Of a stretch of DNA of 64,000 nt, positions 3,412-63,011 are shown one piece after another. The DNA comes from a virus (taxonomy: Duplodnaviria > Heunggongvirae > Uroviricota > Caudoviricetes). Every line of letters starts with the position of its first letter. The stretch's first letter is position 1. The DNA is taken from IMG/VR virus record IMGVR_UViG_2609460060_000003, positions 31,136 through 95,135 of that record; one strand, given 5' to 3'. Below the pieces are notes generated by a model. The model worked only from the letters and a program-made list of their open reading frames with translations. It did not search any database and was not told where the DNA came from. The translations under genes and the position numbers were made by a program.

Positions 3412-4227
3412 TTAGCCAAGGCGCTTACGGCGCAGTTTCATTGACTTTTTGCGGGCAAGTTTTGCCGCGCCGGTCTGGGCTTTTCGACGCGCTTTTTTCA
3501 GCGCCGATTTTTGAGCCGCAGTCAGACGTTTTTTACGCAGGCGTTTACGGATGAGTTTGATCTCACCGTTACGAACAACCTTCTTAAATGCTTCAGTCAG
3601 CATTTCATCAGAAGTGCCAGCAACAACAAACGCCGCTTCCAGTTCGTCGCGGTCGTCGCTATCTAAACCAGCGATAGAGGCACCAACATCAGCAGCAGCG
3701 TCGTCGTCTTCATCGTCAGCCAGTGCTTCGATCAGGTCATCATCTACACCGCATGCTGCGAGGAAGTCAGCAACATTTGCCCATGCTTCGTTATAGGCAT
3801 CGTCCTGTTCTTCTGTAACTTCGGCGTCGTCGTCATCAGAGATACCAGCGATAGCCTGAACGAAACCATCAAGGGAGTCGAAAGTCAGATCACCGCTATC
3901 AGCCCAGGCGAAAACGGCGTCGGCCGCATCACTCAACGCATTCTGCATAGCACTTCGATTTGCAGCTTCCAGAATCATCTGGTGCGCCTGTTCGACGGTC
4001 CATTCTTTACCGTCTTTCCCTTCCAGGATTTGCTCAGGAGCCGGGGCAGATGGAACGTTATCGTTAGTCTGTGCCGCCGGTTCCGGATTATTATTAATAA
4101 CCGGATCTGTTGGCGGTTCGGCGCTTGCTCGGGCAGACTCCATCAGCTGCACAGGATCAGAGTTCAAAGCGAAACGGGACAGTCCATTCCCCAAAAATGC
4201 CCCGGATTGAAAAAAGTTTTTGCTCAT
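3412..4227 (-). CDS. acidic assembly/scaffold-like protein with basic C-terminal tail
   Basis: 271 aa with Asp/Glu runs (DDDDAEVTEEQDD, DDEDDDAAAD) and C-terminal Lys/Arg-rich segment. Confidence 0.4.
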   Translation of the reverse strand: MSKNFFQSGAFLGNGLSRFALNSDPVQLMESARASAEPPTDPVINNNPEPAAQTNDNVPSAPAPEQILEGKDGKEWTVEQAHQMILEAANRSAMQNALSDAADAVFAWADSGDLTFDSLDGFVQAIAGISDDDDAEVTEEQDDAYNEAWANVADFLAACGVDDDLIEALADDEDDDAAADVGASIAGLDSDDRDELEAAFVVAGTSDEMLTEAFKKVVRNGEIKLIRKRLRKKRLTAAQKSALKKARRKAQTGAAKLARKKSMKLRRKRLG

Positions 4228-4236
4228 TGTATTCCC

Positions 4237-7818: not shown

Positions 7819-8820
7819 TTAAGGCTTCGGCTTTTTATCGAGGCTCTTTCTAAGGATATGCCCAATCATCCTGTCGAGTTCTTCCTGTAGCTCTTTTGAA
7901 AGTCGATTAAACTCATAAGAAAATGCACGGCCTTTCACGCGCTTCCTTGCAAAGCGATCCTTGTCCTCAAATTTCCATAATTCAGTAACTACGGACTTAT
8001 CTTTAGAACCTTTATCCGTGAGTAGTGAGGCTTCCTTTGTTATCAAGCGCAGGATTTTATTTTTAACTTCATCTTCGGCCATTTCTTCAATGGATAAGAT
8101 GTCGTTTATTTCCGGGGATATGTTTTGAATAAGCTGATCAAACTCTAAATTCTTGTTCCCCATTTCGTCGCCAACAGCACAAAGCGTTTTGTAGTCCGAA
8201 AAGGTTAATTCCGACTGAACAGGGAAAAGGGCGACTAATTCTTCCGGAGCACTCGCTGCCTGGAGAGCACGCGTGACCTTCGCCTGAGACAGCCCTTCTT
8301 TGGCTGCAATATCCTTCTGACTCATCCCATCATTTTTCATTCGCATCAAACGCAGACCTATTTCTCGAATGCTGTGCTGCAATGCTGTCTGAACGTCTTT
8401 CGCTAAATTTTGCGCTTCCTGAACGCTGATCTCCTGGTCCGTGACTAAAACCCGCAACCCTACGTTCTCTAAGATGGCAGAAGCTCGACGCCGGGAACCA
8501 TCCAAAATTTCAATTTTCCCTGTAGCCCGTCTAACACCTATTGCAGGGTAAAATTGCTGATGCTTAATAGTGCTTCGGATACTTTTTAATGATTTTGGCG
8601 TAAGAGATGCCTGGTCACGCCCGTTGTTATGCTGATCAACAAAGGTATCGCTTTCTACCTGGTTCGGAGGTATTACCTCTTCAATAAATGTGGCCTGGCG
8701 ACCAGTTGATAACTTGAATACCTGCTCGACTCGATCGCCAGAGGCTGAAGAACTATCAAATCCGCTTAATATTGAAGGATTAAGGGTTCGCCCAATTGTT
8801 GGTCTGTTTTTCTTTGACAT
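7819..8820 (-). CDS. parB: ParB partition protein
   Basis: 333 aa, N-terminus MSKKNRPTIGRTLNPSILSGF matches recalled P1 ParB; followed by parS. Confidence 0.9.
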   Translation of the reverse strand: MSKKNRPTIGRTLNPSILSGFDSSSASGDRVEQVFKLSTGRQATFIEEVIPPNQVESDTFVDQHNNGRDQASLTPKSLKSIRSTIKHQQFYPAIGVRRATGKIEILDGSRRRASAILENVGLRVLVTDQEISVQEAQNLAKDVQTALQHSIREIGLRLMRMKNDGMSQKDIAAKEGLSQAKVTRALQAASAPEELVALFPVQSELTFSDYKTLCAVGDEMGNKNLEFDQLIQNISPEINDILSIEEMAEDEVKNKILRLITKEASLLTDKGSKDKSVVTELWKFEDKDRFARKRVKGRAFSYEFNRLSKELQEELDRMIGHILRKSLDKKPKP

Positions 8821-8836
8821 GGGGGGTTCTTACTCC

Positions 8837-10033
8837 TCAGTTAGATCTGATAAATTCAATACGGTCAAAAACTGCTTTAGCAAAATCTTCCGCGGCAATT
8901 CGCGCGTTCTTCAATGCATCAGCACTACCAACATACGTTGCCGGGTTAGCTGAAATAACAGTGTCAAAAGACTCGCCGCAACGTTCAAAACCGTCAAGGC
9001 GAGGGAGGACGACATCGAGCATATCCCCACCGAACACTTCTTTAGCCAGGCTATGGCAATACTTATGATCTGCCTTGTTACTCAACTTGGACATAAAACC
9101 AATGTTAGTCGCAAGCTGGCACTCGCAGCCTTCATCCGAAATGAGTTTTACCAACTCAGGAAGGCGGGCAACGTATTTAAGCGATGAGTGGAAATCGACA
9201 GTTGCTGGCGGCAGAGGTGTAAACAGTATATTGGCCGAGGCCAAAGCATTTTTCAGGAAGGCGTCAAGGTGAGGACCACTATCAACGAGGATAAAGTCAT
9301 AATCGCTCTTCAGCTTATCAATCACATTTTCTTTCAGGACAGCATGGATGTTCTGACCCGGTAGATGCTCATTGCACAGCTCTCTCCAATCGGATGCAAT
9401 AAAGGCATCGTCAATCGACGCAGGCATAACGTCAACCCCAGGTACAACAGAAGGAACAATAAACTCCTCTAACAGCTCTTCACGGCTTACATTCTGCAAC
9501 ATAGCCTGTGCAGATGTTGCGTTTACGATACCAATAGAGTGTTTATGGCTTAAAAACATCGTTGCTGAAGATTGCGGATCAAGGTCAATAACCAGAATCC
9601 TTAAATCTTCCATCAGAAGATGAGGGTGAGCACGCATTGCATGCGCCAGAGAAACCGTCGATACAGTTTTAGACACACCGCCTTTAAGATTGGAGATGAA
9701 AATCACATACGCTTCGCTGTAGCGATCCCGGTATTTTGGCACTCCGCGATGTTCATATATGTCAATGATGTTCTGAATTGACATCGCATATTTCATTGAA
9801 GAGCCAGCAGGGCGTTTATCGAAAACATAACCCTTTTCTTCCATTTCACTTACGGCATAGTCAACGTTCGCTCGAGTCAGTAGAGGCAGTTTTGCCAGTG
9901 CCGCTTTCGCATAGACCTGGTAAAACTCGTTCGCGTGTAGCTCATCCTTTTGCAACTGTACTTGTTCAGTCAGAACATTGAGCATTCTGTTTGCTCTTTG
10001 AGCAACCTTGTGAAGCTGGCTGGAATCACTCAT
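8837..10033 (-). CDS. parA: ParA partition ATPase
   Basis: 398 aa; deviant Walker A KGGVSKT; N-terminal extension typical of type Ia ParA. Confidence 0.9.
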   Translation of the reverse strand: MSDSSQLHKVAQRANRMLNVLTEQVQLQKDELHANEFYQVYAKAALAKLPLLTRANVDYAVSEMEEKGYVFDKRPAGSSMKYAMSIQNIIDIYEHRGVPKYRDRYSEAYVIFISNLKGGVSKTVSTVSLAHAMRAHPHLLMEDLRILVIDLDPQSSATMFLSHKHSIGIVNATSAQAMLQNVSREELLEEFIVPSVVPGVDVMPASIDDAFIASDWRELCNEHLPGQNIHAVLKENVIDKLKSDYDFILVDSGPHLDAFLKNALASANILFTPLPPATVDFHSSLKYVARLPELVKLISDEGCECQLATNIGFMSKLSNKADHKYCHSLAKEVFGGDMLDVVLPRLDGFERCGESFDTVISANPATYVGSADALKNARIAAEDFAKAVFDRIEFIRSN

Positions 10034-10173
10034 CGAAAGTCATCCTTTATGCTGTATTTTTGAATTTAATTAAAAATGCTGCATAAAATAATAATGTATG
10101 CGTAGATGCTTGTACATAGCATTCTCTGCATGTTTGGTTCATTTTGCACGATAGAGAGTTGCAAGGAGGGCAC

Positions 10174-10194
10174 AAAAAAGCCCCGTTCAGGGGC
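10174..10194 (-). terminator. rho-independent terminator after the T5orf172-like gene
   Basis: Minus-strand GCCCC-TGAAC-GGGGC followed by TTTTTT, immediately 3' of the ORF ending at 10202. Confidence 0.6.
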
Positions 10195-10201
10195 ATCAGT
10201 G

Positions 10202-11011
10202 TTATTTGTTAAGAGCTGCGAATAATCGTTCGAAATCGATAGTATCTATAGCACGCGTAAGCGCCGGAAGTTCAGCCTCAAAGCACCCGTTTCGATCGTA
10301 AAAGAAGGGACCGAAGAGCGAGGCATGTTGGATTCTACTTCGCCCCAGTCCGGACACACAGTTAAGCCCATTACCGGCTAAAAGGCTAAAAAACTTCTCT
10401 GGATTATCGTGGTAAAGCTGGGAATCAATGGTGGCGGTTAACTCTTCCATAGGGAAGCACACCCGCCCTGTCTCCCAGGGATATTTAGTCCGAAGCGTAA
10501 ACATCGCTTTCAGCAATTCACATTGAGCGCGGATCGCGTCAGGTTCATAGCCAGATATGGAGACATAAGCCACATCCCTCATTCCTGCGTCATCTTTGAA
10601 AGTCACGATAGAAGTAACATCCAGTTCTTTTTCGAAAGAGCGAGCAGCATCTACTGGACGCTGAAGTAAATCATTCGACTTAATCCGCTCGAGAATCCCT
10701 CCCCACATATCATTTAGATATTCGATATGAGCCAAAACCTTATCAAGACACTCTCGTGTAAACCATTCAGTATGCCCGCCACCGGCGCTTTTCTCCCACG
10801 GCGCATTCCAGGGGAAAAAGGTTGCGTGTAAAGCCCGCTCAAGATTAACTATTGCCAAACGCGTACCACGATAGACCCGTGAAAGCGCAAAATCGGGATT
10901 CACTTGTAGCCCTTTAAACCGTGCCAATGGACCACATGAAATGCCGATTTTAAAAGTATCTCCGTTCTCCGGCACCAGAACGTAGAGGTAGTGTTGTTTC
11001 TCTTCTTGCAT
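10202..11011 (-). CDS. T5orf172/GIY-YIG-like domain protein with unassigned C-terminal domain
   Basis: 269 aa; YLYVLVPENGDTFKIGIS...LERALHATF...GGHTEWF fits the T5orf172 pattern (YxY-KIG-LH-EWF); own terminator; lies between incA and the parA promoter. Confidence 0.6.
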   Translation of the reverse strand: MQEEKQHYLYVLVPENGDTFKIGISCGPLARFKGLQVNPDFALSRVYRGTRLAIVNLERALHATFFPWNAPWEKSAGGGHTEWFTRECLDKVLAHIEYLNDMWGGILERIKSNDLLQRPVDAARSFEKELDVTSIVTFKDDAGMRDVAYVSISGYEPDAIRAQCELLKAMFTLRTKYPWETGRVCFPMEELTATIDSQLYHDNPEKFFSLLAGNGLNCVSGLGRSRIQHASLFGPFFYDRNGCFEAELPALTRAIDTIDFERLFAALNK

Positions 11012-11045
11012 ATCAATACCACTGCTTGATGAGAACCGCGCAAAT

Positions 11046-11302
11046 GTTGACTATGCGCGAAAGTTAATGTGAATAGTTGACTATGCGCGATGTGACTACA
11101 GTCAAAAGTTGACTGTAGTCGATTTAACTCCACCAAAAATCGACTATGTAAGATATTGTCGGGAGAAACGTTGACTATACGCGATGAAATGACCCTAAAA
11201 GCCATCTCAATAGCAGCTTGCAGAATATTGACGCCAGCAAAAATCCACCAGCGTCAACGAATGTCGCCTATAGTCAACTTCTCGCTATCGCATATAGTCA
11301 AT
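11046..11302. repeat. incA-type iteron array
   Basis: About 8 copies of a ~14-bp repeat (TTGACTATGCGCGA and variants) in both orientations, including a perfect palindrome GACTACAGTCAA-aag-TTGACTGTAGTC at 11093-11119. Confidence 0.7.
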
Positions 11303-11303
11303 A

Positions 11304-12224
11304 TTATGGATTGCGCTTATGGATCTGGAAGCCGATTTTCCTGCCGTTTTTTATCTCTGAAAATTTAAGATATTCAATAGCTTCCAAATCTTTCATGGCT
11401 TTTCTGATAACGCTATTTTGCACGCTAACGGATGATTTGAGATTAAGCCTCGCTCTAAGGCGCTCAATGCTGACAGGTGCCGGGTTGGCGGGTAGAGCCT
11501 CAAAGAATGTATACAGTACCTTGGCCGTCTCTTTGCGCCCTAGTTTATCCAGCATCTTCAGCTTCAGGATTCGCTTATAGTCAACATAGTAAAGTTCAGA
11601 TAGCTGTTTCTGCGGCTGGATCTCGATAACATCAAGCTCGGTATTCAGGCTGCTATATGCCAACAAGTTGACGTTAATGTTATTGAGATGACCTTTTGCC
11701 GCCGGGAAGCGGAATTTGACAACTGTCTGCTGAATGCGTGTCAGAGAGTCATCAATACTTTTACGGAACGCCTTTGAAAGGCGCTTACGTGGATAGCCGC
11801 ATCGATCGGCAAACTCGGAGAATGGCAGGGTGATTATGCCGTCATCATCAGGTGCGTAGTCAAACAACGCGGAGGTTATGCCCACCCACACCTTAAAATC
11901 AGTATCCATATCCAGGCGTGGACCATGAATTTCAATTCCCTCATAGCCTTCCTGCTCAACAATTTTGAGGCTTGATAGTTCTTCAGTTGCGTTCGTTGTG
12001 TTTGTTGTAACTGACGATCCGCGACGTAGCGCCACATTGGTAGATTTTAAGGTTGGCACAAACACACCTAAGCGCAACAAAGCGATGGGTTGTATAGTGC
12101 TGTTGTTATTGGGCTTCAGGCTGTGGATTTCTCCTGTATTTCCTGCAACTTCTTCAACGCTAAGGAAGCCTTTACTTTCTTCCGGCATCACGGTTTCTCC
12201 ATGTGTGGCGCGGCCTGACGTCAA
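11304..12224 (-). CDS. repA: RepA plasmid replication initiator
   Basis: Contains GPRLDMDTDFK and other segments recalled from P1 RepA; flanked by iteron arrays; true start may be the Met 12 codons in (12188). Confidence 0.8.
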   Translation of the reverse strand: MTSGRATHGETVMPEESKGFLSVEEVAGNTGEIHSLKPNNNSTIQPIALLRLGVFVPTLKSTNVALRRGSSVTTNTTNATEELSSLKIVEQEGYEGIEIHGPRLDMDTDFKVWVGITSALFDYAPDDDGIITLPFSEFADRCGYPRKRLSKAFRKSIDDSLTRIQQTVVKFRFPAAKGHLNNINVNLLAYSSLNTELDVIEIQPQKQLSELYYVDYKRILKLKMLDKLGRKETAKVLYTFFEALPANPAPVSIERLRARLNLKSSVSVQNSVIRKAMKDLEAIEYLKFSEIKNGRKIGFQIHKRNP

Positions 12225-12271
12225 TTTGGATGGCTGTTATCAACAGCTGTGAATATTCAGACTCTAAAATC

Positions 12272-12370
12272 GCTTACAGTCAATGTTTCTGTCGCGTATA
12301 GTCAACAATAAATCGCGTGCAGTCAACAATAAATCGTGCACAGTCAACATAAAATCGCGTATAGTCAATG
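12272..12370. repeat. incC-type iterons within oriR
   Basis: Direct repeats CGCGTATAGTCAAC / CGCGTGCAGTCAAC / CGTGCACAGTCAAC / CGCGTATAGTCAAT spaced at 22 bp. Confidence 0.75.
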
Positions 12371-51091: not shown

Positions 51092-52123
51092 ATGTCCAAT
51101 TTACTGACCGTACACCAAAATTTGCCTGCATTACCGGTCGATGCAACGAGTGATGAGGTTCGCAAGAACCTGATGGACATGTTCAGGGATCGCCAGGCGT
51201 TTTCTGAGCATACCTGGAAAATGCTTCTGTCCGTTTGCCGGTCGTGGGCGGCATGGTGTAAGTTGAATAACCGGAAATGGTTTCCCGCAGAACCTGAAGA
51301 TGTTCGCGATTATCTTCTATATCTTCAGGCGCGCGGTCTGGCAGTAAAAACTATCCAGCAACATTTGGGCCAGCTAAACATGCTTCATCGTCGGTCCGGG
51401 CTGCCACGACCAAGTGACAGCAATGCTGTTTCACTGGTCATGCGACGGATCCGAAAAGAAAACGTTGATGCCGGTGAGCGTGCAAAACAGGCGCTGGCGT
51501 TCGAACGCACTGATTTCGACCTGGTTCGTTCACTCATGGAAAATAGTGAGCGCTGCCAGGATATACGTAATCTGGCATTTCTGGGGATTGCTTATAACAC
51601 CCTGTTACGTATAGCCGAAATTGCCAGGATCAGGGTTAAAGATATCTCACGTACTGACGGTGGGAGAATGTTAATCCATATTGGCAGAACGAAAACGCTG
51701 GTTAGCACCGCAGGTGTAGAGAAGGCACTTAGCCTGGGGGTAACTAAACTGGTCGAGCGATGGATTTCCGTCTCTGGTGTAGCTGATGATCCGAATAACT
51801 ACCTGTTTTGCCGGGTCAGAAAAAATGGTGTTGCCGCGCCATCTGCCACCAGCCAGCTATCAACTCGCGCCCTGGAAGGGATTTTTGAAGCAACTCATCG
51901 ATTGATTTACGGCGCTAAGGATGACTCTGGTCAGAGATACCTGGCCTGGTCTGGACACAGTGCCCGTGTCGGAGCCGCGCGAGATATGGCCCGCGCTGGA
52001 GTTTCAATACCGGAGATCATGCAAGCTGGTGGCTGGACCAATGTAAATATTGTCATGAACTATATCCGTAACCTGGATAGTGAAACAGGGGCAATGGTGC
52101 GCCTGCTGGAAGATGGCGATTAG
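51092..52123 (+). CDS. cre: Cre tyrosine recombinase
   Basis: 343 aa, MSNLLTVHQNLPALPVDATSDEVRKNLMDMF... matches recalled P1 Cre; loxP 419 bp upstream. Confidence 0.97.
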   Translation: MSNLLTVHQNLPALPVDATSDEVRKNLMDMFRDRQAFSEHTWKMLLSVCRSWAAWCKLNNRKWFPAEPEDVRDYLLYLQARGLAVKTIQQHLGQLNMLHRRSGLPRPSDSNAVSLVMRRIRKENVDAGERAKQALAFERTDFDLVRSLMENSERCQDIRNLAFLGIAYNTLLRIAEIARIRVKDISRTDGGRMLIHIGRTKTLVSTAGVEKALSLGVTKLVERWISVSGVADDPNNYLFCRVRKNGVAAPSATSQLSTRALEGIFEATHRLIYGAKDDSGQRYLAWSGHSARVGAARDMARAGVSIPEIMQAGGWTNVNIVMNYIRNLDSETGAMVRLLEDGD

Positions 52124-52732: not shown

Positions 52733-53293
52733 ATGAAAACAATCGAACAAAAAATTGAACAGCGCCGCGAGTGGCAGAAGGCAGCCAGAGAACGAGCGAT
52801 CGCTCGGCAACGGGAAAAGTTGGCTGACCCCGCCTGGCGAGAATCGCAATATCAGAAAATGCGGGATACTATCGACCGCCGTATCGCTAAACAGAAAGAG
52901 CGCCCACCAGCCAGCAAAACGCGGAAAAGCGCGGTAAAAATAAAATCTCGTGGCTTGAAGGGGAGAACACCAACGGCGGAGGAACGGCGCATCGCCAATG
53001 CTCTTGGCGCTCTCCCCTGCATTGCCTGCTACATGCATGGAGTAATATCTGAAGAGGTGTCTCTGCACCATATCTCCGGTCGTACCGCGCCGGATTGTCA
53101 CAAAAAGCAATTGCCCCTTTGCAGATGGCACCACCAGCATGCAGCACCGGCTGAAGTAAGAGAAAAATACCCTTGGCTGGTCCCTGTTCATGCCGATGGT
53201 GTGGTTGGAGGCAAGAAAGAATTCACCTTGCTGAACAAGTCAGAGATGGAGTTGCTGGCTGACGCCTATGAGATGGCAAACATCATGCACTAA
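52733..53293 (+). CDS. ref: Ref (HNH-type recombination enhancement endonuclease)
   Basis: 186 aa from ATG 52733; Cys/His HNH-like core CIACYMHG...HHISGRTAPDCHKKQLPLCRWHH. Confidence 0.8.
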   Translation: MKTIEQKIEQRREWQKAARERAIARQREKLADPAWRESQYQKMRDTIDRRIAKQKERPPASKTRKSAVKIKSRGLKGRTPTAEERRIANALGALPCIACYMHGVISEEVSLHHISGRTAPDCHKKQLPLCRWHHQHAAPAEVREKYPWLVPVHADGVVGGKKEFTLLNKSEMELLADAYEMANIMH

Positions 53294-53443
53294 TAAATAT
53301 ATTATTTTTAATCTGAAATAATTGACAACTGACAAGTGACTTCAGTCAGAATCATCACACGCCCGGTACGGATGGATCCCTTTTCAAATATTCCATGGAC
53401 GGCACAGTCTGAGTACCGGGCGCTACCTTCAGTTGTATTGCTA

Positions 53444-53470
53444 AGCCGCCGCTGGTGGCTTTTCTTTTTT
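53444..53470 (+). terminator. hairpin with T-tract upstream of mat
   Basis: AGCCGCC-gct-GGTGGCT then TTTCTTTTTT. Confidence 0.4.
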
Positions 53471-53480
53471 GTGGGGCGCT

Positions 53481-54122
53481 ATGGATAAGAAAATATGCGT
53501 TGTTTCAATGAGCGTCGGCAAACCGGCGTCAATGACTGCTGCATGGATCAACAATGAGCTGATAATGGCTGAGCGGACCAGCTACCCTGAACGCCGCCGC
53601 GACATGGAACTCCAGCTGCTGCGCGAATTGCGAGAAAAAGAGGAAAAGGGTTTTATCGTGCTGGTGGAAGAGGAAAACAGCTTTATTACTGGTCGAGTTG
53701 GCCAGCGTGTAAGGTTGCGAGATCCCTTTATGAACGGCAGGCCGGTACTGATTGAAGCAATGCAGATTTACAAGGAATTGGAACGCCAGAAAGCGATCAA
53801 GTTACCGCGCAAAGAATCCGGCAAATACATCCTCCACCAAAGCATCTTCGATTCCGAACACGACAAAAAAGGCGATGAATTTTTCAACATCAACTGGAGC
53901 GAAATAACGACAGAGCATGTTCTGACGTTACTATGTTGCTTTGCGACGGAATACAACAACGTTGCCAGCGCAGACTACATCAGGGCAATGGCTGGAGAAG
54001 TTGAGGCACGCCAGGAACCATCGTTACTAAGCCCTCTGATTAACATAATTCGCGGAACCCAAACGCTGGCACAAAAACAGGTGCCTAAGGGAGTATTAAC
54101 AGGAAAAGGAAATTATCTATAA
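53481..54122 (+). CDS. Mat-like protein (P1 mat position)
   Basis: 213 aa from ATG 53481; backbone-like GC; between ref and the variable slot. Confidence 0.45.
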   Translation: MDKKICVVSMSVGKPASMTAAWINNELIMAERTSYPERRRDMELQLLRELREKEEKGFIVLVEEENSFITGRVGQRVRLRDPFMNGRPVLIEAMQIYKELERQKAIKLPRKESGKYILHQSIFDSEHDKKGDEFFNINWSEITTEHVLTLLCCFATEYNNVASADYIRAMAGEVEARQEPSLLSPLINIIRGTQTLAQKQVPKGVLTGKGNYL

Positions 54123-54178
54123 ACGTCAATGCATTAGGGTATACTTCTCCGTAGAACTATAAGTAAATGGAGTAAGTA

Positions 54179-55483
54179 ATGAGCGAGTATATAGAAATTG
54201 CCTATGCAGCAGCTACACATAGGCTGTGCTTTCTTACAGGCACTGGATTTTCAAAGGCTGTTTCTGATGATAAAGCCCCAAGTTGGCAATCTTTATTGGA
54301 GCAACTGTGCGGTTTATTGAAGGATGGTGACTCACTCAAAGAGGAATTATTTCCTGATGGAAAAGCAAAAGACCTTAGCCTTGAAGAGGCTGCTCAGGTT
54401 ATTGCACTAAAATTTATACTTTCGGGGAAAAATATTTACCAGGAGATTGAGAAAATCATAGCCTCAATCGAACTTGATCCATCAATTGAATATATTCAAG
54501 ACTTTTTCAAAGAAAACACATTTAAAGTAATTACGACAAATTATGACAAGTTAGCAGAAAAACTGGCTGGAGAGAATCGAACGTGTACAATCACCCCCGG
54601 CCTGCCAATTCCAAAATATAATTGTGAGGTTAAAGTCTACCATGTTCACGGCTCTATAGACTCCCCATCAGATATGGTTGTTACTAGCGAGGATTATTTC
54701 AGATTTATAAATGGTAATTCTTACTTTTCAAATAAACTAAGCACAGTTCTACATGAAAACACTATTGTTATTCTTGGCTATTCTCTAAGTGACGCGAACC
54801 TCAAGGCGATTATAAATGAATATAAGGTATTTTCACGGGACAACGTAATGTCCTCCAATATTTTCCTTATTTCCCGAGGAAAACTATTGCAACCTATTAA
54901 AGATTACTATTTTTCCTGCTTTGGGATTAGGGTTATAGATAAAACAGAGGTGTCTGATTTCTTTAGAAAACTTAACAAGAAAATTCCAGAAGCAAAAAAA
55001 ATAAAAGACAAATTGAGGCACTCAATCAAATCGGTAATAAAAAACGGAAGAGAGTATAAAATAGAGTTCTTGAAGTTAGAGGATTCTTTTTATCATATCA
55101 TTTCCTCCATTTCATCATCTGGATATAGCTGGAATGATGAAAAGGTATTAAATGTTTTTTGTGATATAATAGATAAAAAAATAGATCTTACTAAAGAGTC
55201 TGGCGCATGGGAGCAGTATGAACACTTGGCAAAATGGCTTATTTATTTCGGTAGTTTATTTGAAGTAAAAGGAACCAACTTTGAGAAAAAATACATACAT
55301 GCGGTTGAACACTCAATGACTTATATGAATAAACCTTACGAAACAGGCTACTCATGGCGAGCATATCTAGCCTGGAAAACAAAATGGCCTTCACTGACAG
55401 CATCTAACCGCTCTCTTATTAAGAGTAAGATGGAAGAAATCCCGCTACAACAGATTCACGATATTATATCTAAGTTTATATAG
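54179..55483 (+). CDS. SIR2-family (SIR2_2-like) protein with uncharacterised C-terminal domain
   Basis: 434 aa; GGAG 8 nt upstream of ATG; ordered motifs CFLTGTGFS (17-25), VITTNYD (N121), VYHVHGS (H157), IVILGYSLSD (196-205); AT-rich relative to flanks. Confidence 0.7.
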   Translation: MSEYIEIAYAAATHRLCFLTGTGFSKAVSDDKAPSWQSLLEQLCGLLKDGDSLKEELFPDGKAKDLSLEEAAQVIALKFILSGKNIYQEIEKIIASIELDPSIEYIQDFFKENTFKVITTNYDKLAEKLAGENRTCTITPGLPIPKYNCEVKVYHVHGSIDSPSDMVVTSEDYFRFINGNSYFSNKLSTVLHENTIVILGYSLSDANLKAIINEYKVFSRDNVMSSNIFLISRGKLLQPIKDYYFSCFGIRVIDKTEVSDFFRKLNKKIPEAKKIKDKLRHSIKSVIKNGREYKIEFLKLEDSFYHIISSISSSGYSWNDEKVLNVFCDIIDKKIDLTKESGAWEQYEHLAKWLIYFGSLFEVKGTNFEKKYIHAVEHSMTYMNKPYETGYSWRAYLAWKTKWPSLTASNRSLIKSKMEEIPLQQIHDIISKFI

Positions 55484-55491
55484 TATATTTA

Positions 55492-55520
55492 TCTCCGGCC
55501 TAATCTCCCTAGGCCGGAGA
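55492..55520. other. inverted repeat between convergent SIR2-like gene and lxc
   Basis: TCTCCGGCC-N11-GGCCGGAGA, 9-bp stem, no clear U-tract. Confidence 0.4.
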
Positions 55521-55524
55521 GTTC

Positions 55525-55773
55525 TTAATCAGCATTCAGGAGCAATGCGTTATCTATGATGATCTGCTCCCATTCCTCGAATGCCCGGTCGCGGACGCCC
55601 TGGGGAACGCTGTTAGTTTTGAAATCGACGACCGTCCGCCATTTTCCGTCCGGACGGTACATGCGCAGAGCTTTACTTCCCCCTTCCCTGCGCACCTCAA
55701 CGTTATGCTTGTCAGCAAACTCTTGTAATGCTCGTAGCGTCCCATGCTTTACTGTGTAGTATCGCTTTTTCAA
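55525..55773 (-). CDS. lxc: Lxc/Bof-like C1 co-repressor
   Basis: 82-aa ORF at the end of the darB operon. Confidence 0.5.
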   Translation of the reverse strand: MKKRYYTVKHGTLRALQEFADKHNVEVRREGGSKALRMYRPDGKWRTVVDFKTNSVPQGVRDRAFEEWEQIIIDNALLLNAD

Positions 55774-56210
55774 GTTTTCTCTCCAGCCTGTGCCAAGGCT
55801 TCAACTTCCAAATCGTAAGACTCAAACTCATAGTCCTGGTCGTCAACTTCTTCAGGCACTGGCAGTAAATGCCAGGCTGAGTATATCTGACCATTATCAA
55901 AACGCTCCTGGCTGTAGAGCGTCGCGGCTATGAGTGTTAGCGCCGGGCGGTCATAACGGTAAATTTTGCGAACGTCACGGTCAACGAGACGACCGAAATT
56001 ACCATAACCGCGCTCCAGTAATAATTTTTTAATTTCCGGCCAGTATGGACCATAGCTGCGGTACAGGCGGGGATTTTTCAGTAATCGCCCGCGTAGCCCT
56101 GACAGGAAGAAATCAACGTATTCGTCTTCTGTCTTTCCTAACAACGCTGTACGGAGTACCGCCTCAAGATATGTTTTATTCGGTTTTATTGTATCAGATA
56201 GTGTGGCCAT
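55770..56210 (-). CDS. ulx: hypothetical protein between darB and lxc
   Basis: 146-aa ORF, stop overlapping lxc start. Confidence 0.45.
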   Translation of the reverse strand: MATLSDTIKPNKTYLEAVLRTALLGKTEDEYVDFFLSGLRGRLLKNPRLYRSYGPYWPEIKKLLLERGYGNFGRLVDRDVRKIYRYDRPALTLIAATLYSQERFDNGQIYSAWHLLPVPEEVDDQDYEFESYDLEVEALAQAGEKT

Positions 56211-56243
56211 ATTATGCGACGCCCGGCGAACCGGGCGCTCCTG

Positions 56244-59200
56244 TTATGCGTATTGTTGGATGACGGCCAGAACGTCCGCCACGTTGTGTTTTGTCTCGAT
56301 AATCCACCAGTTACCCGGGAAATCGCTGTTCTTCGCCTTCGCTGGCAGCCAGCGAGCGCCGAATTTCGCCTTGATTGCGTCTTTCGCACGGAAAAGAACG
56401 CCTTTCATGCCTGAGGCTTCCTGAAGCCCAAATACCTCGCCAGCGGCGAATTTTGGTGCGTACATCATCTTCAGGTCGGCGGTGGATACGCGATAATTCA
56501 GACCAAGAGACTGAGCTATGCTGGTGGCATCACCCTGTATTGATGATAACTCTTCTTGTTTCTCGTTTCTGGCGGCAATCTCTTCCTCCGTGATGTTGCC
56601 AAGGGCTAGGTTTATCCGATCAGCGTCGGCCTGTTTCTCTTCATCGGTGCGCCCGGCAAGAACCGTGTTAATTCTCTGCAATATCTCCACATGATTCTTG
56701 CGCATGCTGAGCAATTCCGGCGTAACCTCGTTAAGATCCACCAGCCCAAGGATGGCAAGGTCGGAAAACATTGATACCAGGTTGTAGGTCATGCGATAGC
56801 TGAGTTGACCATAGGCTGATGGCAACTTCACCGCATCCATTTGATAGGCATCCATAAATTTAGAGCCGTCGTTTACGACATCCGCTATTGCAGGTGTGAT
56901 TTTCCCTGTGGTGGCGGCCTCCCTGATTGCTGTTACCCACGATTGAGTCAGCGCGGCGACTGCATGATTCAGATTGGCTTCCCGTTCTGCTGCGATGCGC
57001 GCGCTTGCTGCGTCCATTGCCTGCTTGATCTCGGCTTTATTGCTGTAAATGCCAATGGTGCCAAACTGTGCTGTGGTGATCTCATAATCTGACGCCCGGA
57101 ACTCATTGGTACCGAAAATGGCATTGGTGACTTCAAGTTCAGAATCCCCGTTACGAGTAGCCCCCTGGCTTGTTTTTTCCGGCATTCTGGCGATCGCATC
57201 CGCTATTTTCTCCTGAATTGCTTCAGGGGATAGCGTATCTCCGTATGACGCGATTACATCGCCATAATTGGAGCCAAACAGTTCAACCAGGAATGTTTCT
57301 GCCGAACGGATCTGGCGGTTATTCCCTTCCGACATCATACCAAGCACCCATTTTGCAATTGACGACTTCAGCGCGCCGTCACGGCGATCCGGGTAAACCG
57401 CATGCTTCAGTGGGTCCGTATAGGTACCAACAAAATCGATGCTATAGCCTGACTCTGTAGTCTGAACGCCGTATGAGTCAGTGATTTTGATCATGCCGCG
57501 CTGCTGGAAACGGTAGAAATCGTCACAGGAAATGATGTCGTTAATCCCGGCGATGGAGACGCCACCACTGATTTTCTGCATAACAGCATCTTCATCGGGA
57601 GTTACATCAACCTGTTTATCCAGCGTCTTCACATCCCAGTTACCCGATTTGGTGCCTTTGAAGGTAAAGATGATCTCCACGTCTGCGCGCTGGCTGTCGA
57701 AGTCCAGCGACTTAATGCGAACGATATCACCGGCACAATCATAGTATTGGCCTACACGCCATGAGCGATCGCCGATAACAAGGAACTCATTCGCATGGTT
57801 AACCAGATCAGGATCAACATCCAGAATGCCTTTATTTATTGCATCCTCCACCAGCGGGCGCAGGCGTTTGATATCCGTCGCGGCCTTCTGAGTACGGTTC
57901 AATAATTTCTCATAGCGGGAGATGGCCTGAGAGATATTAGCCTTGCGCTGAATGGCGCTTTTCAACGACGCGCGATACTGTGCTAACAACATACGGTCTG
58001 TGTGATGGACGCTACCCCAGCGGGCTTTCCAGTCTGCGTTATCAGCTGCTTTGGCCATTACCGCCTGTTTGAATTTAGCTACCTCGGCGGTGGTCTTTTC
58101 AAGTTCCGCTTTGCTTCGCTCCAATTCAGCGGTAAGTACCTCCACATCCTCACCAGCTGCGTGCTGCGCCTTGATGTAGTTCTTAAGGTCGATAGTAGCC
58201 TGTTCTTTCTGGCGAGCGCGTTTCGCAGCTTTCGCCTTATCCATTTGAACCTGCATCATTGCCAGACGTTCGCCGTCATCCTTCGCGGTATACATCTGCA
58301 TTTCGATCATGTCATTGGCGTCGGCGTTCTCCATTTCTGACTTATCTGAACGGAGGATATCGGAGATCCAGCCTGCTTTACGCTTCAGCGTCTTCAGTCG
58401 GTATTCATCGAAAGACCCCTTGCCGCAGTAGTAGTGAACGCGAACGCTTGCACGGTTGGAGCCAACTCGTGCACCGCGACCGTTACGTTGTGCGATGCTG
58501 GCTGGTGTCCATGGCAACGTCAGATGATGGATGTCAGTCGTTCCTCGATGCAGGTTGATACCCACCTCTGCCTTTTTGTTGCAGATGATGATCGGAGTCC
58601 GGCCCTCCTGGAAGTCGGCTGCAATCTTTTCCAGACCGCCCAACGACATTTCATTTTGCTGCGCGATATAGGCGTCATACAGAGCCATTTGCTCGTTGTA
58701 TTTCGCTATCTGTGCATCTGTTGGTTCATCCGGTAGCTCTTTCGGCGGTTTAACCGCTTTCAGTTTCTTACCGGTTTTACCTGCCTCGGCAACCGTCTGA
58801 GCATTCAGGATCCCCACCTTTGAAGGTTCAAGGTTTAGAGCATTGCAGATAATGCGCTTGAGCTTCTGGTGCTGCGTTTTTTCATCGGTGAAGATGATTT
58901 GCTTACCTTCCGGGAAAAACTCCTTCAGCGTGGCGATCAGCTTCGCGTATTTCGGCGTAACGGGGTGAGTTACGGTCTGTTCGTCAATGCCAAACCTGGC
59001 CAGGCGCTTATTCACTTCCTGCTCGAACGCTTCCGGAACCTGCAACTGAATAAACTCGCCCTTATCTATCAGGGAGTATTGCGATTGCTGCGTGATTGAA
59101 TCATCACTGTCGTCGTCTTCGCTGGTGGCTTGTTTAGGCAAACTGTCCGCCAGCTGCTGCACCGCATCGGCGTACTCCGGCAGGAAACGATAGGTGATCC

Positions 59201-62200
59201 GGCGATAGTACAGGTCCATGTCAGTACATACGCGGTCCATATCCCTGATTATTGAGAAGATCGGACGGGCTTTCTCGTGCTCAATCACGCCGTCTTCATT
59301 GACCGAGGTCGTTACGCCATTGTTGGCTTTGGCCGCCGCTTCCGCCTGCTGACGCAATTCTTCATACGCCGCCAGTTGTTCTTCAGTAAGTGGTGCATCC
59401 TGCTGGTGTTCGTCCAGCTCCGGGATCTCCACGGTATCCTTAACGTCTTCCGCCGTTTTAAGCGTTACCCAGCGATGGAATATACCGCGCAGCGCATCAA
59501 GGTTTTCAAAGCCCACCAGCGCCATTTTTTCTTCAACTTCACCGCTAATTTTCTGTACCGTTTCCAGCCTGGTCTTGCCGAAGAATTTAACGAAGTCATC
59601 AGGACCGTAGATCCCCATGTTCTGCCAGTATTCCTTCGGCAGAACATGAGAAAGCATGTTGTATGCATCGATCGGGGTGTTAACGACTGGCGTTGCAGTC
59701 AGGAGAACCGGCCCGCGCCCGCCATTCTTTTTCATCAGGTACGCGTTTTTAATTGCCATATCTCGCGCCGATTGCGCCACCGCGCTGGTGGGCAGATAGG
59801 CCAGTTGTGACGCTTCGCGACCATTTTTATAGCTATTGCGGTAGTTGTGACCTTCGTCGGCGATCACACTATCGAAGCCCATATCCTCAAAGTACGGATA
59901 CTTCTCTGCTTTTTCGGTGCCGGTATCTGAATACTCCGACAATACCCGGCGACGCGCGGCCTCTTTGCGGTGGGAGTCGGAGTCCATTGCGCTGGCTACG
60001 CGCCCGGCTGCAACGAAGTCATAAAGCATATCCTGTGCATGCTCATCTACGGTGTCATCACGTAGCGGAATGCGGGCGTATTGTTCTTTGGTAAACACGA
60101 CTGCACGGTAATTTGAGTGCGGGATCGCGTTCATCCGCGCCGTGATAGTGGCTTCATCTGCCAGCTTAAGAGCATCGCGCATAACTGGAGTGCCATCAGT
60201 ACCAAGAACAGGTTTACCGTTCTCATTGAGCACCGGCACCTGGCGAATCTGATCGCCATCCATCAGCACATCAAGACCGACGAACAGGTAGTTACTGAAT
60301 GCCTCTTCACTCAGGAACTCTTTTGCTTCGTAATACCAGTTTTCCAGCACTGATTTAGGCACTACATACGCAGTACGGGTGGAGCGACCGTTCTCATAGT
60401 TGAACGCCTCAAGCGCCAGCGCGGTCGTCGTTTTACCCAGCCCGGTGCCGAAGCCCAGGATGCCGCGCCCATCTTCGGACAGTCGTCTCACCTCGCTATT
60501 CTGGTAATCAAATGGCTGGCGCTTACCGCTTAATCCCTTCAACCCAAGCGGATCGCCAGAGTGTTCATACGGAATATTGCTATTGAAAACATCGTTGTAT
60601 TTGGCAACCAGCTCATCGTAGCGATCGTGCGTCTTGATCCACTTATTGAACTGGTCCTCAAGCAGTGCCATCTGCTCGCGGTAGCCGTTCGCCGTCGCGC
60701 TATCTTTGCCACCGATACGCGCACCATTGAGATACTTTTCCAGCTGTGCCGGGAACCCGGTCGCGTTTTCACCTGATTTACGGTCCCACTCGTAGCGGAT
60801 CTCGCCTGTTTCTTTATCCTTGCGCTGGACGACACCGTATCGGTGCCCGACGAACAGACCATCACCACCGTGATAGGTGTCAGAAACCATTTCGTCGCCT
60901 TCCAGCTGCACTGACTGCACATAGCGAAGATCCGGATAGCCGTTTTCCTGCAAAAATTCCAGAATGACGGAACGGTCGAACCAACGGCTATTGAGCTTAA
61001 AGCGGATATTCTCTGCTGGCGTCTTGATGCGCTTCTCTTCGATCGCTGCCAGCTGATTAAGGACGTTGTTCTTTACTGGACCGTCGGGGAGTGTGGCAAG
61101 GAATTCCTGTTTTGGTGCCACTATCTCGTTAATGTCGCCGCTGGTGGCGCGGGCGAACGGAACAATCCCGCCATACGGTGAAACCGCAATGCCAGGGGTG
61201 CTGGCCAATAAATTAAGCAACTCGTCATCACTGGCTGGCAGTTCGCCGGTAAACGCAAGGCGGAAATCATCGAGCTGGATTGGATCGCGAGTGAGATCAC
61301 TGTAGAGATAACGCAGGGTGTCCTGATAGCTGGTGGAGTCATAACTGGCGCTGGAATCATGCGTAACCAGTTTTCCTGTCAGCTCGTCAGAAATAGTGCC
61401 ATCCAGCTTAATTGCACCACGGAAAGCAAACCAGGCGCGCGCACCGCTCCCCGATAATTTCGCTATCGGACCGCGACCGGGGTTACCAAAACGGTCAATC
61501 TCTGCCTGCAAACGGGATACCAGAGAAAGGCGCTGCTGTTCGATTTGTTCAGCACTATGCCCGGCGGCCTTCATGTCCTGATATTCAATTAACATCCGGC
61601 CAATCATCGCCCCGCGATACAAGCGTTCACGGTATTTTTCAGGCTGGCTGTTAATCCAGTCCACCAGCTGCACCATATCGTCGCTGATTGATGTGGTGTA
61701 CTTATCGCGGACATTTGCCATCTGGGTAAATGTCATGCCGAGACGGCCTTCTGTTGTAGTCAGGTTACGCTGAAGAGCCTCCCAGCTATCCGCGCCATAA
61801 CTGGCAGCATCGATCTTAAGTTCCTTCCCTGCATCAGCTTCAATCCAGCGACCACCAGCATATTTTTGCCATACGCCATTAATCAGGCGCATTTCCCCTT
61901 CACCAACAACGTCTGCGGTCGGTGACGGTTCAGCCATATCGAGCAAAGACCAGTCGATACGGCTTTCGAAACGATGAATCAGCTTCGCTTTAAGAGCCTG
62001 GTTATCAATCTGACCGTCGGCACGAACCTCAATACGCCCCTGGAAGCCCTTTTCCTGGGTGCCATGAACAAACCGGCGGCCATCCTTTTCAAACCACTTG
62101 CCAGAAATAAACGTTGACCAAAGCACATTTGCCGATTCGAGAGTGCTTTCATCCACCAGGGGGATTTTCTCAGCCATCTCTGCCGGATGTTTGCGCATCA

Positions 62201-63011
62201 GCACCACATCTACGACCGTACTGGTCCCGTTAGCGTCAAAAGTACCGGTAGGCAAGCGGTGGGCACCAAGAAATTCAGCTTTCCGTGATAGGCGCAGGCG
62301 TAACCGCTTCATGTTTGAACCTGAAACAATGGACGGCGGCACAATCACGCACATGAATCCGCCTGGCTTTATCTTGTCCAGCATGCGGAGCATGAAGTAA
62401 GAACCCATGTCCGTTTCTTCTGCGTAAGGCTTATCGATGTTGCGTGTGTTATCACGACCACCGAACGGAACGTTACCCACAACATGGTCGAATGAATCGT
62501 TAGGCGTGCTTACAGCCAGTTGTTCGAACGGAGAAATCTGTACGCTGTCTTCCGGGTGCAACAGCTGGTTTATACGACCGGAAACACTGCTGATCTCAGT
62601 CGCGGTCATCACCGTACCAACCGGTTTTGTCTCATTAAAAACGCCGGTTCCCGCCGATGGTTCCAGAGTGTTACCTACGTCCGCGCCGTAGAGCTTCATG
62701 ATCTCCCAGACACCTTCAGCGATAGGCTTTGGTGTGTAATATTCGGAGACGGACCCGCCAATGCCGCCTTCACCAGTGTACCCGGCCAGGATCTGGCGCT
62801 GTTCATCTGTCAGTGTCGCGCCGTCCACCAGCGAATTAAGCAAATCTATCGCCTTCTGATTCGCCTCCCGGCGCAGTCGGTCATAGCTTTTGCCTTCCAC
62901 CTTTTCCACGCCGTATCTAATCGGCGCTCGGTGAGATGTTATTGCCCTAATGTATTTCAATATTTCGCTGACACTTGAACAGCGAAACACCCCTATAGAT
63001 AGCTTGTTCAT
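56244..63011 (-). CDS. darB: DarB antirestriction protein (methyltransferase-like N-terminus, helicase-like core)
   Basis: 2255-aa ORF, same length as recalled P1 DarB; N-terminal VVGNVPFGG N6-MTase-like motif, central helicase-like motifs (GFGTGLGKT, DEGH). Confidence 0.9.
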   Translation of the reverse strand: MNKLSIGVFRCSSVSEILKYIRAITSHRAPIRYGVEKVEGKSYDRLRREANQKAIDLLNSLVDGATLTDEQRQILAGYTGEGGIGGSVSEYYTPKPIAEGVWEIMKLYGADVGNTLEPSAGTGVFNETKPVGTVMTATEISSVSGRINQLLHPEDSVQISPFEQLAVSTPNDSFDHVVGNVPFGGRDNTRNIDKPYAEETDMGSYFMLRMLDKIKPGGFMCVIVPPSIVSGSNMKRLRLRLSRKAEFLGAHRLPTGTFDANGTSTVVDVVLMRKHPAEMAEKIPLVDESTLESANVLWSTFISGKWFEKDGRRFVHGTQEKGFQGRIEVRADGQIDNQALKAKLIHRFESRIDWSLLDMAEPSPTADVVGEGEMRLINGVWQKYAGGRWIEADAGKELKIDAASYGADSWEALQRNLTTTEGRLGMTFTQMANVRDKYTTSISDDMVQLVDWINSQPEKYRERLYRGAMIGRMLIEYQDMKAAGHSAEQIEQQRLSLVSRLQAEIDRFGNPGRGPIAKLSGSGARAWFAFRGAIKLDGTISDELTGKLVTHDSSASYDSTSYQDTLRYLYSDLTRDPIQLDDFRLAFTGELPASDDELLNLLASTPGIAVSPYGGIVPFARATSGDINEIVAPKQEFLATLPDGPVKNNVLNQLAAIEEKRIKTPAENIRFKLNSRWFDRSVILEFLQENGYPDLRYVQSVQLEGDEMVSDTYHGGDGLFVGHRYGVVQRKDKETGEIRYEWDRKSGENATGFPAQLEKYLNGARIGGKDSATANGYREQMALLEDQFNKWIKTHDRYDELVAKYNDVFNSNIPYEHSGDPLGLKGLSGKRQPFDYQNSEVRRLSEDGRGILGFGTGLGKTTTALALEAFNYENGRSTRTAYVVPKSVLENWYYEAKEFLSEEAFSNYLFVGLDVLMDGDQIRQVPVLNENGKPVLGTDGTPVMRDALKLADEATITARMNAIPHSNYRAVVFTKEQYARIPLRDDTVDEHAQDMLYDFVAAGRVASAMDSDSHRKEAARRRVLSEYSDTGTEKAEKYPYFEDMGFDSVIADEGHNYRNSYKNGREASQLAYLPTSAVAQSARDMAIKNAYLMKKNGGRGPVLLTATPVVNTPIDAYNMLSHVLPKEYWQNMGIYGPDDFVKFFGKTRLETVQKISGEVEEKMALVGFENLDALRGIFHRWVTLKTAEDVKDTVEIPELDEHQQDAPLTEEQLAAYEELRQQAEAAAKANNGVTTSVNEDGVIEHEKARPIFSIIRDMDRVCTDMDLYYRRITYRFLPEYADAVQQLADSLPKQATSEDDDSDDSITQQSQYSLIDKGEFIQLQVPEAFEQEVNKRLARFGIDEQTVTHPVTPKYAKLIATLKEFFPEGKQIIFTDEKTQHQKLKRIICNALNLEPSKVGILNAQTVAEAGKTGKKLKAVKPPKELPDEPTDAQIAKYNEQMALYDAYIAQQNEMSLGGLEKIAADFQEGRTPIIICNKKAEVGINLHRGTTDIHHLTLPWTPASIAQRNGRGARVGSNRASVRVHYYCGKGSFDEYRLKTLKRKAGWISDILRSDKSEMENADANDMIEMQMYTAKDDGERLAMMQVQMDKAKAAKRARQKEQATIDLKNYIKAQHAAGEDVEVLTAELERSKAELEKTTAEVAKFKQAVMAKAADNADWKARWGSVHHTDRMLLAQYRASLKSAIQRKANISQAISRYEKLLNRTQKAATDIKRLRPLVEDAINKGILDVDPDLVNHANEFLVIGDRSWRVGQYYDCAGDIVRIKSLDFDSQRADVEIIFTFKGTKSGNWDVKTLDKQVDVTPDEDAVMQKISGGVSIAGINDIISCDDFYRFQQRGMIKITDSYGVQTTESGYSIDFVGTYTDPLKHAVYPDRRDGALKSSIAKWVLGMMSEGNNRQIRSAETFLVELFGSNYGDVIASYGDTLSPEAIQEKIADAIARMPEKTSQGATRNGDSELEVTNAIFGTNEFRASDYEITTAQFGTIGIYSNKAEIKQAMDAASARIAAEREANLNHAVAALTQSWVTAIREAATTGKITPAIADVVNDGSKFMDAYQMDAVKLPSAYGQLSYRMTYNLVSMFSDLAILGLVDLNEVTPELLSMRKNHVEILQRINTVLAGRTDEEKQADADRINLALGNITEEEIAARNEKQEELSSIQGDATSIAQSLGLNYRVSTADLKMMYAPKFAAGEVFGLQEASGMKGVLFRAKDAIKAKFGARWLPAKAKNSDFPGNWWIIETKHNVADVLAVIQQYA

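Follow-up and report, generated by a model that had tools for sequence, protein, structure and literature searches.

A single-gene SIR2 cargo in the mat/lxc slot of P1-like phage-plasmids is a candidate anti-phage module

Genomic context and borders of the insert

The DNA analysed here (the window; 64,000 nucleotides (nt), positions 31,136 to 95,135 of IMG/VR record IMGVR_UViG_2609460060_000003) belongs to a P1-like phage-plasmid, and the gene under study encodes a 434-amino-acid (aa) SIR2-family protein between the backbone genes mat and lxc. The window encodes Cre (51092-52123), C8, Ref, Mat, Lxc, Ulx and DarB, and 15 matches to the C1 operator consensus were found across it, with 0.33 expected by chance. 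The SIR2 gene (54179..55483, + strand) was the single open reading frame (ORF) between mat and lxc.

Pairwise comparison showed that homology to P1, SJ46, RCS47, JL22, Ro157c2YLVW and MH422554 breaks at the mat stop (54122) and restarts at the lxc stop (55525). Positions 54123..55524 (+ strand) thus represent an exact insert of 1,402 bp. The insert had a guanine-cytosine (GC) content of 0.357 against 0.482 for the whole window, and sliding GC was 0.30-0.39 within it against 0.47-0.53 in both flanks. The SIR2 gene itself had a GC of 0.352 and a third-codon-position GC (GC3) of 0.33, while backbone genes had a GC3 of 0.46-0.58. An earlier reading made from the letters alone (the sequence-only reading) had placed a 434-aa ORF in an AT-rich island with backbone-like flanks, and composition and homology breakpoints agree with it.

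In the P1 reference, the mat-lxc interval holds the EcoPI genes res and mod together with IS5, and in RCS47 it measures only 39 bp. That res and mod occupy this position in P1, and that nothing like them exists in the window, had both been proposed before; the P1 annotation and junction comparison confirmed the former, and tblastn with P1 Res and Mod as queries gave no match in the window. An Rfam scan of 53000-56500 returned no non-coding RNA.

Within the insert, a 56-nt leader (54123..54178, +) carries a ribosome-binding site, GGAG at 54169-54172, located 6 nt ahead of the ATG. The putative defence-type, sirtuin-like SIR2_2 domain (aa 1-255; 54179..54943, +) is followed by a family-specific C-terminal domain (aa 256-434 and the stop codon; 54944..55483, +). 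A GC-rich hairpin with an 11-bp stem (55492..55520) was detected by the terminator scan between the convergent SIR2 gene and lxc.

On the left, the backbone is anchored by the maturation control gene mat (53481..54122, +), which as far as 54118-54122 matches P1, SJ46 and RCS47 at 95-97% of nucleotides. The right anchor (55525..56210, - strand) consists of lxc (55525-55773) and ulx (55770-56210), 98-99.5% identical to the same three genomes from 55525 on. The darB gene (56244-63011 in the ORF list) lies beyond ulx; the names lxc, ulx and darB follow the P1 annotation.

The SIR2 domain

A profile search, which the sequence-only reading had put forward as a check, matched Pfam SIR2_2 (PF13289) on aa 117-245 with 83.8 bits (cutoff 24.5, E=1.6e-23). 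All the motifs quoted in that reading were present. An alignment of 30 family sequences at 52-60% identity showed T20-G21-T22-G23-F24-S25, T119-T120-N121-Y122-D123, Y154-H155-x-H157-G158-S159 and G200-Y201-S202-L203-x-D205 to be invariant or nearly so, with the putative catalytic residues N121 and H157 invariant in 30/30 homologues and T20-G23 forming the putative NAD-binding loop (NAD, nicotinamide adenine dinucleotide). The fold was of the Rossmann-type SIR2 kind, with the Asn (in TTNYD) and the His (in VHG) at the catalytic positions of DSR2 and ThsA, and the alignment to these two proteins ran through both motifs. Sequence searches of PADLOC, NCBIfam and the Protein Data Bank (PDB) matched PDC-S25, ThsA, LmuA, Dsr2, Dsr1 and KomC, in all cases over the SIR2 core only. 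These features point to a defence-type SIR2 domain with the Asn/His pair, for which NAD+ glycohydrolase (NADase) activity is predicted.

The RefSeq name of the protein suggests a canonical sirtuin protein deacylase. This assignment was rejected: no CxxC pair and no zinc-binding Cys4 module was found in the 434-aa protein, in which C17 and C44 are the only conserved cysteines, and the protein is not a canonical deacylase because it lacks both CxxC and the zinc ribbon.

The C-terminal domain

The AlphaFold2 model (predicted local distance difference test, 81.7; predicted template modelling score, 0.80) comprised an alpha/beta SIR2 domain (residues 1-255), a long helix of 32 residues (258-289) and an all-helical domain. 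The region of aa 256-434 was confidently predicted as a HEAT/ARM-like helical repeat, or alpha-solenoid. The C-terminal half is rich in lysine (14% vs 8%) and matched no Pfam family, being neither SLOG, TIR nor P-loop NTPase; its earlier description as Lys-rich, helical and without a recognisable motif was thus accurate. In the 30-sequence alignment, W344, Q346, Y347, W353, Y356, S392, W393, Y396, W399, W403, N410 and R411 of this domain were invariant. The top PDB match in Foldseek was DSR2 (E=2e-8), with a template modelling score of about 0.44, which corresponds to one domain.

When the C-terminal domain alone was searched against 1.84 billion representative proteins, 75 clusters were obtained, in which it always occupied about residues 255-440 of a 420-480-aa protein or occurred in fragments. 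All of the divergent matches inspected (10/10) had SIR2_2 ahead of the C-terminal domain, and no fusion to another effector was found among the same representatives. Since the domain is found only behind SIR2, it is exclusive to this SIR2 family and not a widely reused module.

Single-gene status and neighbouring genes

A single ORF made up the P1 cargo, flanked by 56 nt on its 5' side and 41 nt on its 3' side. Neighbouring genes were surveyed at 53 full-length loci on contigs taken at one genome per species, with ORFs within 3.5 kb clustered by BLASTP; the loci span Gamma-, Beta- and Alphaproteobacteria, Desulfobacter, actinobacteria and one Treponema. No neighbour family occurred in more than 3 of the 53 loci, so that no conserved partner gene was identified, as the absence of an adjacent partner in the insert had led the sequence-only reading to expect. 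The nearest neighbours were mixed and included a few type I restriction-modification genes, dGTPase, PD-T7-1/5, AbiD, integrases and resolvases. A ThsB-like TIR gene was 1/102 nearest neighbours, and neither a HerA-type ATPase nor an SMC-like neighbour recurred.

At one locus, from Paracidovorax avenae (8335-12278), a 1,135-aa protein without a Pfam match is encoded on the opposite strand about 1 kb downstream of the SIR2 homologue, beside a 189-aa AAA_23/SMC_N-like protein. Together they may form a further defence system of that island, seen at this locus only.

Distribution and annotation of the family

The homologue search returned 659 proteins, of which the best 120 were all 431-465 aa long and 54-61% identical over the full length. 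The hosts of these 120 were Vibrio, Halomonas, Pseudoalteromonas, Marinobacter, Klebsiella, Pantoea, Pseudomonas, Delftia and Paracidovorax. Homologues were mostly chromosomal and occurred in many non-P1 contexts; a chromosomal homologue of Escherichia coli (56% identity) was located directly after a prophage integrase at a prophage-chromosome junction.

The exact protein was present on at least 1,000 public contigs and an allele of 59% identity on 555, both named only as "SIR2 family protein" or "NAD-dependent protein deacylase" in the databases. PHROG 7567, which has no assigned function, matched the protein over its full length. In PLSDB, the lxc-ulx backbone marker was found in 699 plasmids, and 66 of these (~10%) carried the SIR2 gene at a threshold of at least 90% nucleotide identity. 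The marker was also detected in 699 (~13%) of 5,426 complete E. coli genomes and the SIR2 gene in 70 (1.3%), with 71/72 of the matching places on plasmids. IMG/VR contained 28 full-length copies, 17 on P1-like contigs and 11 on other viral contigs. One P1-like phage-plasmid with the exact SIR2 gene, NZ_CP080254.1 (pPC6-mcr1), has a name that also marks it as an mcr-1 (colistin resistance) plasmid, a case in which defence cargo and resistance cargo travel on one element.

Alleles and selection

P1-like elements carried alleles of the SIR2 gene at 100%, 96%, 92% and 59% identity (protein or nucleotide) in the mat/lxc slot, and the mat, lxc and ulx flanks were 98-100% identical among the carriers. 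In three contigs with the 59% allele, the leader and first codons were nearly identical to window positions 54123-54190, and the 3' end and terminator hairpin differed. The near-identical 56-nt leader points to allelic replacement by recombination, and a shared start combined with a different 3' end suggests gene conversion or recombination within the gene rather than an independent insertion.

The gene is under purifying selection overall, with a ratio of nonsynonymous to synonymous substitution rates (dN/dS) of about 0.11-0.14, and the C-terminal domain evolves faster than the SIR2 domain. Mean pairwise identity in the 30-sequence alignment was 56% for the C-terminal domain vs 70% for SIR2, and the C-terminal domain was the lower of the two in 433/435 pairs.

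The mat/lxc slot as a multi-cargo hotspot

Lxc was used to collect 80 P1-like viral contigs, of which 73 had both anchors. The mat/lxc interval in these 73 was either empty or occupied by one of 12 cargo classes, with a cargo GC of 0.33-0.43. The SIR2 gene was the most frequent cargo (12/73; 11 contigs and 1 with the 59% allele), followed by a 346-aa DUF2971/PDC-S31 protein, a 202-aa GNAT protein and a CapRel-type RelA_SpoT/PDC-S33 protein (9/73 each, the last as 6 + 3). EcoPI-like res/mod was found in 8/73 contigs, and the slot was empty in another 8/73. The remaining contigs held a 316-aa PIN_12 protein, gp7 in JL22 (6/73), a JukA-containing cassette (4/73), an EAL and AraC pair (3/73), a YaaC-like protein with a nucleoside-deoxyribosyltransferase-like protein (3/73) or a small lipoprotein (2/73). 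Of these cargoes, DUF2971/PDC-S31, GNAT, PIN_12, the EAL and AraC pair and the small lipoprotein are without a described function.

In phage SJ46 the slot gene encodes a RelA/SpoT protein. CapRel^SJ46, from Salmonella phage SJ46, has been shown to defend as a toxin fused to its antitoxin, with a capsid protein as the trigger (PMC9712102). The slot is thus a constant position in the backbone at which unrelated defence genes of foreign composition replace one another in related elements, as is expected of a defence hotspot; this multi-cargo nature was missed by the sequence-only reading.

Further observations were made on single cargoes. The 1,698-bp YaaC-type cargo of one contig contained two ORFs (91-1131 and 1131-1640) with overlapping stop and start codons, encoding a YaaC-like protein (Pfam E=6e-46) and a weak match to nucleoside 2-deoxyribosyltransferase (E=2e-4, below the Pfam cutoff). 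The pair had no PADLOC match and may be an uncharacterised defence pair. A 3,567-bp cargo with five ORFs encoded a full-length JukA match (PADLOC E=3e-66) after a helix-turn-helix protein and a 372-aa protein of no recognised kind; the Juk system is known from Pseudomonas, and a JukA homologue is here carried on E. coli P1-like phages. Over the final ~60 nt of mat (window 54040-54122), genomes with differing cargo diverged far more than on the lxc side (54% vs ~95% column identity). The left recombination junctions therefore seem to fall within the 3' end of mat, with Mat C-termini varying with the cargo.

Comparison with known SIR2 systems and slot cargoes

The SIR2 protein was compared with the described defence systems that contain SIR2. 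It most resembles DSR2 of Bacillus subtilis, in being a single-gene system with one polypeptide in which an N-terminal SIR2 NADase (predicted here) is followed by a helical-repeat region, and the DSR2 alignment covers residues 51-260. However, it has less than half the length of DSR2, and the C-terminal domain was not retrieved. Membership in DSR2/DSR1 (~1,000-1,200 aa) was rejected, with scores of 30.6 bits for Dsr2 and 21.2 bits for Dsr1 against NCBIfam cutoffs of 1,400 and about 100 aa of SIR2 core aligned.

ThsA, the effector of type I Thoeris, binds a TIR-made signal through a C-terminal SLOG domain and needs ThsB, whereas the present protein has a HEAT-like solenoid; with no SLOG in the C-terminal domain and no ThsB in the P1 cargo or conserved nearby, ThsA was rejected. 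KomC of Kongming is a bare SIR2 protein of 264 aa that works with KomA and KomB, and neither the C-terminal domain nor the partners are shared. Avs5 has a STAND NTPase, and the filament-forming proteins KomC, Avs5 and FAM118B are all without this C-terminal domain; Avs5, or SIR2-STAND, was rejected since the 434-aa protein has a helical-repeat C-terminal domain and no NTPase match in Pfam. SIR2-HerA (Nezha) did not fit a single-ORF cargo without a recurrent neighbour family. Lamassu was rejected as the PADLOC match to LmuA covered the SIR2 part of the profile alone (positions 21-221 of 433) and no SMC-like neighbour of the LmuB kind recurred. Two possible precedents were also set aside: the Vibrio cholerae NAD-depletion paper concerns Nezha, and PsSIR2 belongs to SIR2-HerA.

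PDC-S25, a single-gene SIR2-containing candidate, was the best PADLOC match (E=5e-24). It was rejected because the matches covered only profile positions 127-283 and 122-252 of 517-528; the parts flanking its SIR2 core were unmatched, and its architecture therefore differs.

The closest concept is sole-Sir2, which was compared by description only. It is a single protein of ~440 aa with a SIR2-like domain and no partner; in vitro it converts NAD+ to ADP-ribose, and protection of E. coli from T2/T4 is reported for a homologue (preprint, bioRxiv 10.1101/2024.12.27.630466). Size (434 vs ~440 aa) and partnerless organisation are alike. As described, however, sole-Sir2 has a C-terminal SIR2 domain behind an N-terminal part of no recognised kind, with examples inside type I-C cas operons, while SIR2 is N-terminal in the present protein. 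The existence of sole-Sir2 weakens the earlier statement that the known SIR2 defence proteins acting alone are much larger.

CapRel^SJ46 and EcoPI are alike in position, being alternative cargo at the identical mat/lxc site, and CapRel is moreover a single protein in which a toxic enzyme is fused to a phage-sensing C-terminal domain (PMC9712102). Their sequences are unrelated to the SIR2 gene, and their activities are transfer RNA pyrophosphorylation and DNA restriction, respectively, as against the NAD+ hydrolysis predicted here.

The literature search, outside which many subscription-journal papers lay, gave nothing relevant for PDC-S25, the protein accession or stand-alone SIR2, and no paper describing a P1 mat/lxc hotspot. 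The proposal of an undescribed single-gene module accordingly stands in part: the protein fits none of the named SIR2 systems, but it is neither rare nor unnoticed, given its contig count, its PHROG entry and its presence on about a tenth of P1-like plasmids. The gene is already catalogued, and is functionally uncharacterised in all literature and databases searched.

Expression signals

The mat control region (53255-53490) was 98% identical to P1, in which Omat, Pmat and LPmat are annotated. No C1 operator was found within the cargo. At 53443-53461, past the place where Pmat/LPmat are annotated and ahead of the mat start codon, lies a terminator-like hairpin with a T-run, identical in P1; transcription reaching mat and the cargo could be attenuated by it. 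The strong hairpin at 55492-55520, with which the cargo ends, is likely a bidirectional terminator belonging to the cargo, and each alternative cargo had its own differing hairpin at the lxc end of the slot. For CapRel, placed and oriented alike, 100-200 bp of its native upstream DNA suffice for function (PMC9712102). The slot location can therefore provide expression; the CapRel leader differs in sequence from the SIR2 leader.

Proposed function and alternative explanations

The reading that we consider probable is that the SIR2 gene is a one-protein anti-phage module, an autoinhibited NADase whose own HEAT-like domain would switch it on and which would abort infection by NAD+ depletion. The analysis established the SIR2 fold and motifs, the family-specific C-terminal domain, the single-gene organisation, the position in a defence hotspot, purifying selection and a broad occurrence on prophages and plasmids. 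By analogy with DSR2, ThsA, KomC, Avs5 and sole-Sir2, an NADase activity, a part in defence and a trigger are proposed, as is the function of the C-terminal domain. The gene would be a self-contained, swappable cargo of P1-like phage-plasmids. Its N-terminal SIR2_2 domain would act as an NADase through the catalytic residues N121 and H157 and would be kept off in uninfected lysogens. The C-terminal domain would act as regulator or sensor, most likely by binding a protein of the infecting phage or by controlling oligomerisation. Activation would release the NADase, the NAD+ pool would collapse and the infecting phage would be stopped, through abortive infection or growth arrest, so that the population of P1 lysogens would be protected.

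Several results weigh against this proposal. No sigma-70-like promoter (at least 9/12 matches) was found on the + strand from the mat start to the SIR2 gene, including the 56-nt leader, and no terminator was detected between mat and the SIR2 gene. With P1-type C1-operator and late control of mat, no recognised promoter for the SIR2 gene itself and no terminator separating it from mat, read-through from a C1-controlled or late promoter is possible; the gene might then be repressed in lysogens and expressed with the late genes, which fits poorly with protection of the lysogen. The fold search with the C-terminal domain, which had been suggested along with the structure prediction, returned generic solenoids only and matched neither the DSR2 sensor nor any known trigger-binding domain. 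Judged by raw counts, enrichment of defence genes around the non-P1 homologues was modest. An arms-race signal in the C-terminal domain was inconsistent: against the 96% allele, dN/dS was 0.11 for SIR2 and 0.72 for the C-terminal domain (Fisher p=0.015), which is suggestive, but the 92% allele did not reproduce it (0.11 and 0.14, respectively; p=0.66), and therefore no positive selection is claimed. Lastly, about 2/17 P1 copies appeared truncated or frameshifted. Apparently disrupted copies included one at 3509-4297 of its contig and one with a 1,403-bp cargo and an ORF cut to 338 aa; they could be pseudogenes or sequencing errors, and would be relevant to a possible fitness cost.

Other explanations were weighed on the same evidence. 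The protein could be a SIR2 effector that needs a host partner, an unlinked phage partner or a small-molecule signal, in the style of Thoeris or Kongming, with the C-terminal domain as a docking or ligand module and not a direct sensor of a phage protein. KomC and ThsA, the proteins nearest to it in structure, belong to multi-gene systems in which a signal activates them as effectors, a ThsB-like TIR gene did appear once among the nearest neighbours, and sole-Sir2 from CRISPR loci alone gave no protection in E. coli (bioRxiv 10.1101/2024.12.27.630466). We hold such dependence to be unlikely, as the one-gene cargo with its short flanks and the 53 loci have no conserved partner, the alpha-solenoid is not SLOG, Macro or another known nucleotide-binding fold, and the family moves as a single gene between very different hosts and elements. 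A service to P1 itself is also unlikely. The gene would then encode a sirtuin-like modifier (ADP-ribosyltransferase or deacylase) or an NADase that is co-expressed with mat from late or C1-controlled promoters and manipulates host metabolism or excludes competitors during lytic growth of P1. Its location on the same strand 56 nt downstream of mat, with no intervening terminator and no recognised promoter of its own, the P1-like mat control region and the RefSeq name "NAD-dependent protein deacylase" are in keeping with this. But the cargo is optional: 8/73 contigs and RCS47 have an empty slot, and elsewhere unrelated genes fill it, so the SIR2 gene is not part of P1 development. The many chromosomal, non-P1 homologues and the missing zinc ribbon of protein-deacylating sirtuins point the same way, as does CapRel, which defends from its native upstream DNA in the equivalent place.

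A toxin-like module for stabilisation or competition between elements, which would kill or arrest plasmid-free cells or target incoming plasmids or P1-like elements and not lytic phages, appears improbable. The host element is a low-copy plasmid prophage, the slot also holds a restriction-modification system and a fused toxin-antitoxin, both able to act as addiction modules, and an NADase is intrinsically toxic. Set against these points, the single ORF has no antitoxin gene or labile-antidote architecture, many homologues are chromosomal, and P1 already carries phd/doc for addiction (PMC10879196). That the gene is a decaying or non-functional passenger is barely credible: its AT-rich, foreign composition could be silenced by H-NS and a few copies are disrupted, but dN/dS is about 0.11, the catalytic motifs are invariant, the full length is kept at 52-60% identity across bacterial classes, and the exact protein is widespread on public contigs.

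Implications

Among the effectors of bacterial immunity, SIR2 NADases form a major class, and each known architecture senses infection differently. A further-reaching proposal, possible though on balance doubtful, is that the protein is the smallest fully self-contained SIR2 immune receptor, in which the HEAT-like domain of ~180 aa would sense a phage protein directly and switch on the NADase and the 100/96/92/59% alleles would differ in specificity, and that the mat/lxc slot is an undescribed hotspot in ~13% of complete E. coli genomes whose DUF2971, GNAT, PIN_12, YaaC + NDT-like and EAL + AraC cargoes may include several new defence systems.

As a compact predicted effector joined to a unique domain, the protein offers a tractable model of how a SIR2 enzyme is restrained and switched. 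The slot looks like a resource for discovery: defence is proven for two of its cargoes, EcoPI and CapRel, while no fewer than five others are uncharacterised. About one in ten P1-like phage-plasmids carries the SIR2 gene, and such elements often bear resistance genes such as mcr-1. Being this common on P1-like elements, the gene could shape which therapeutic and environmental phages infect clinical and livestock E. coli.

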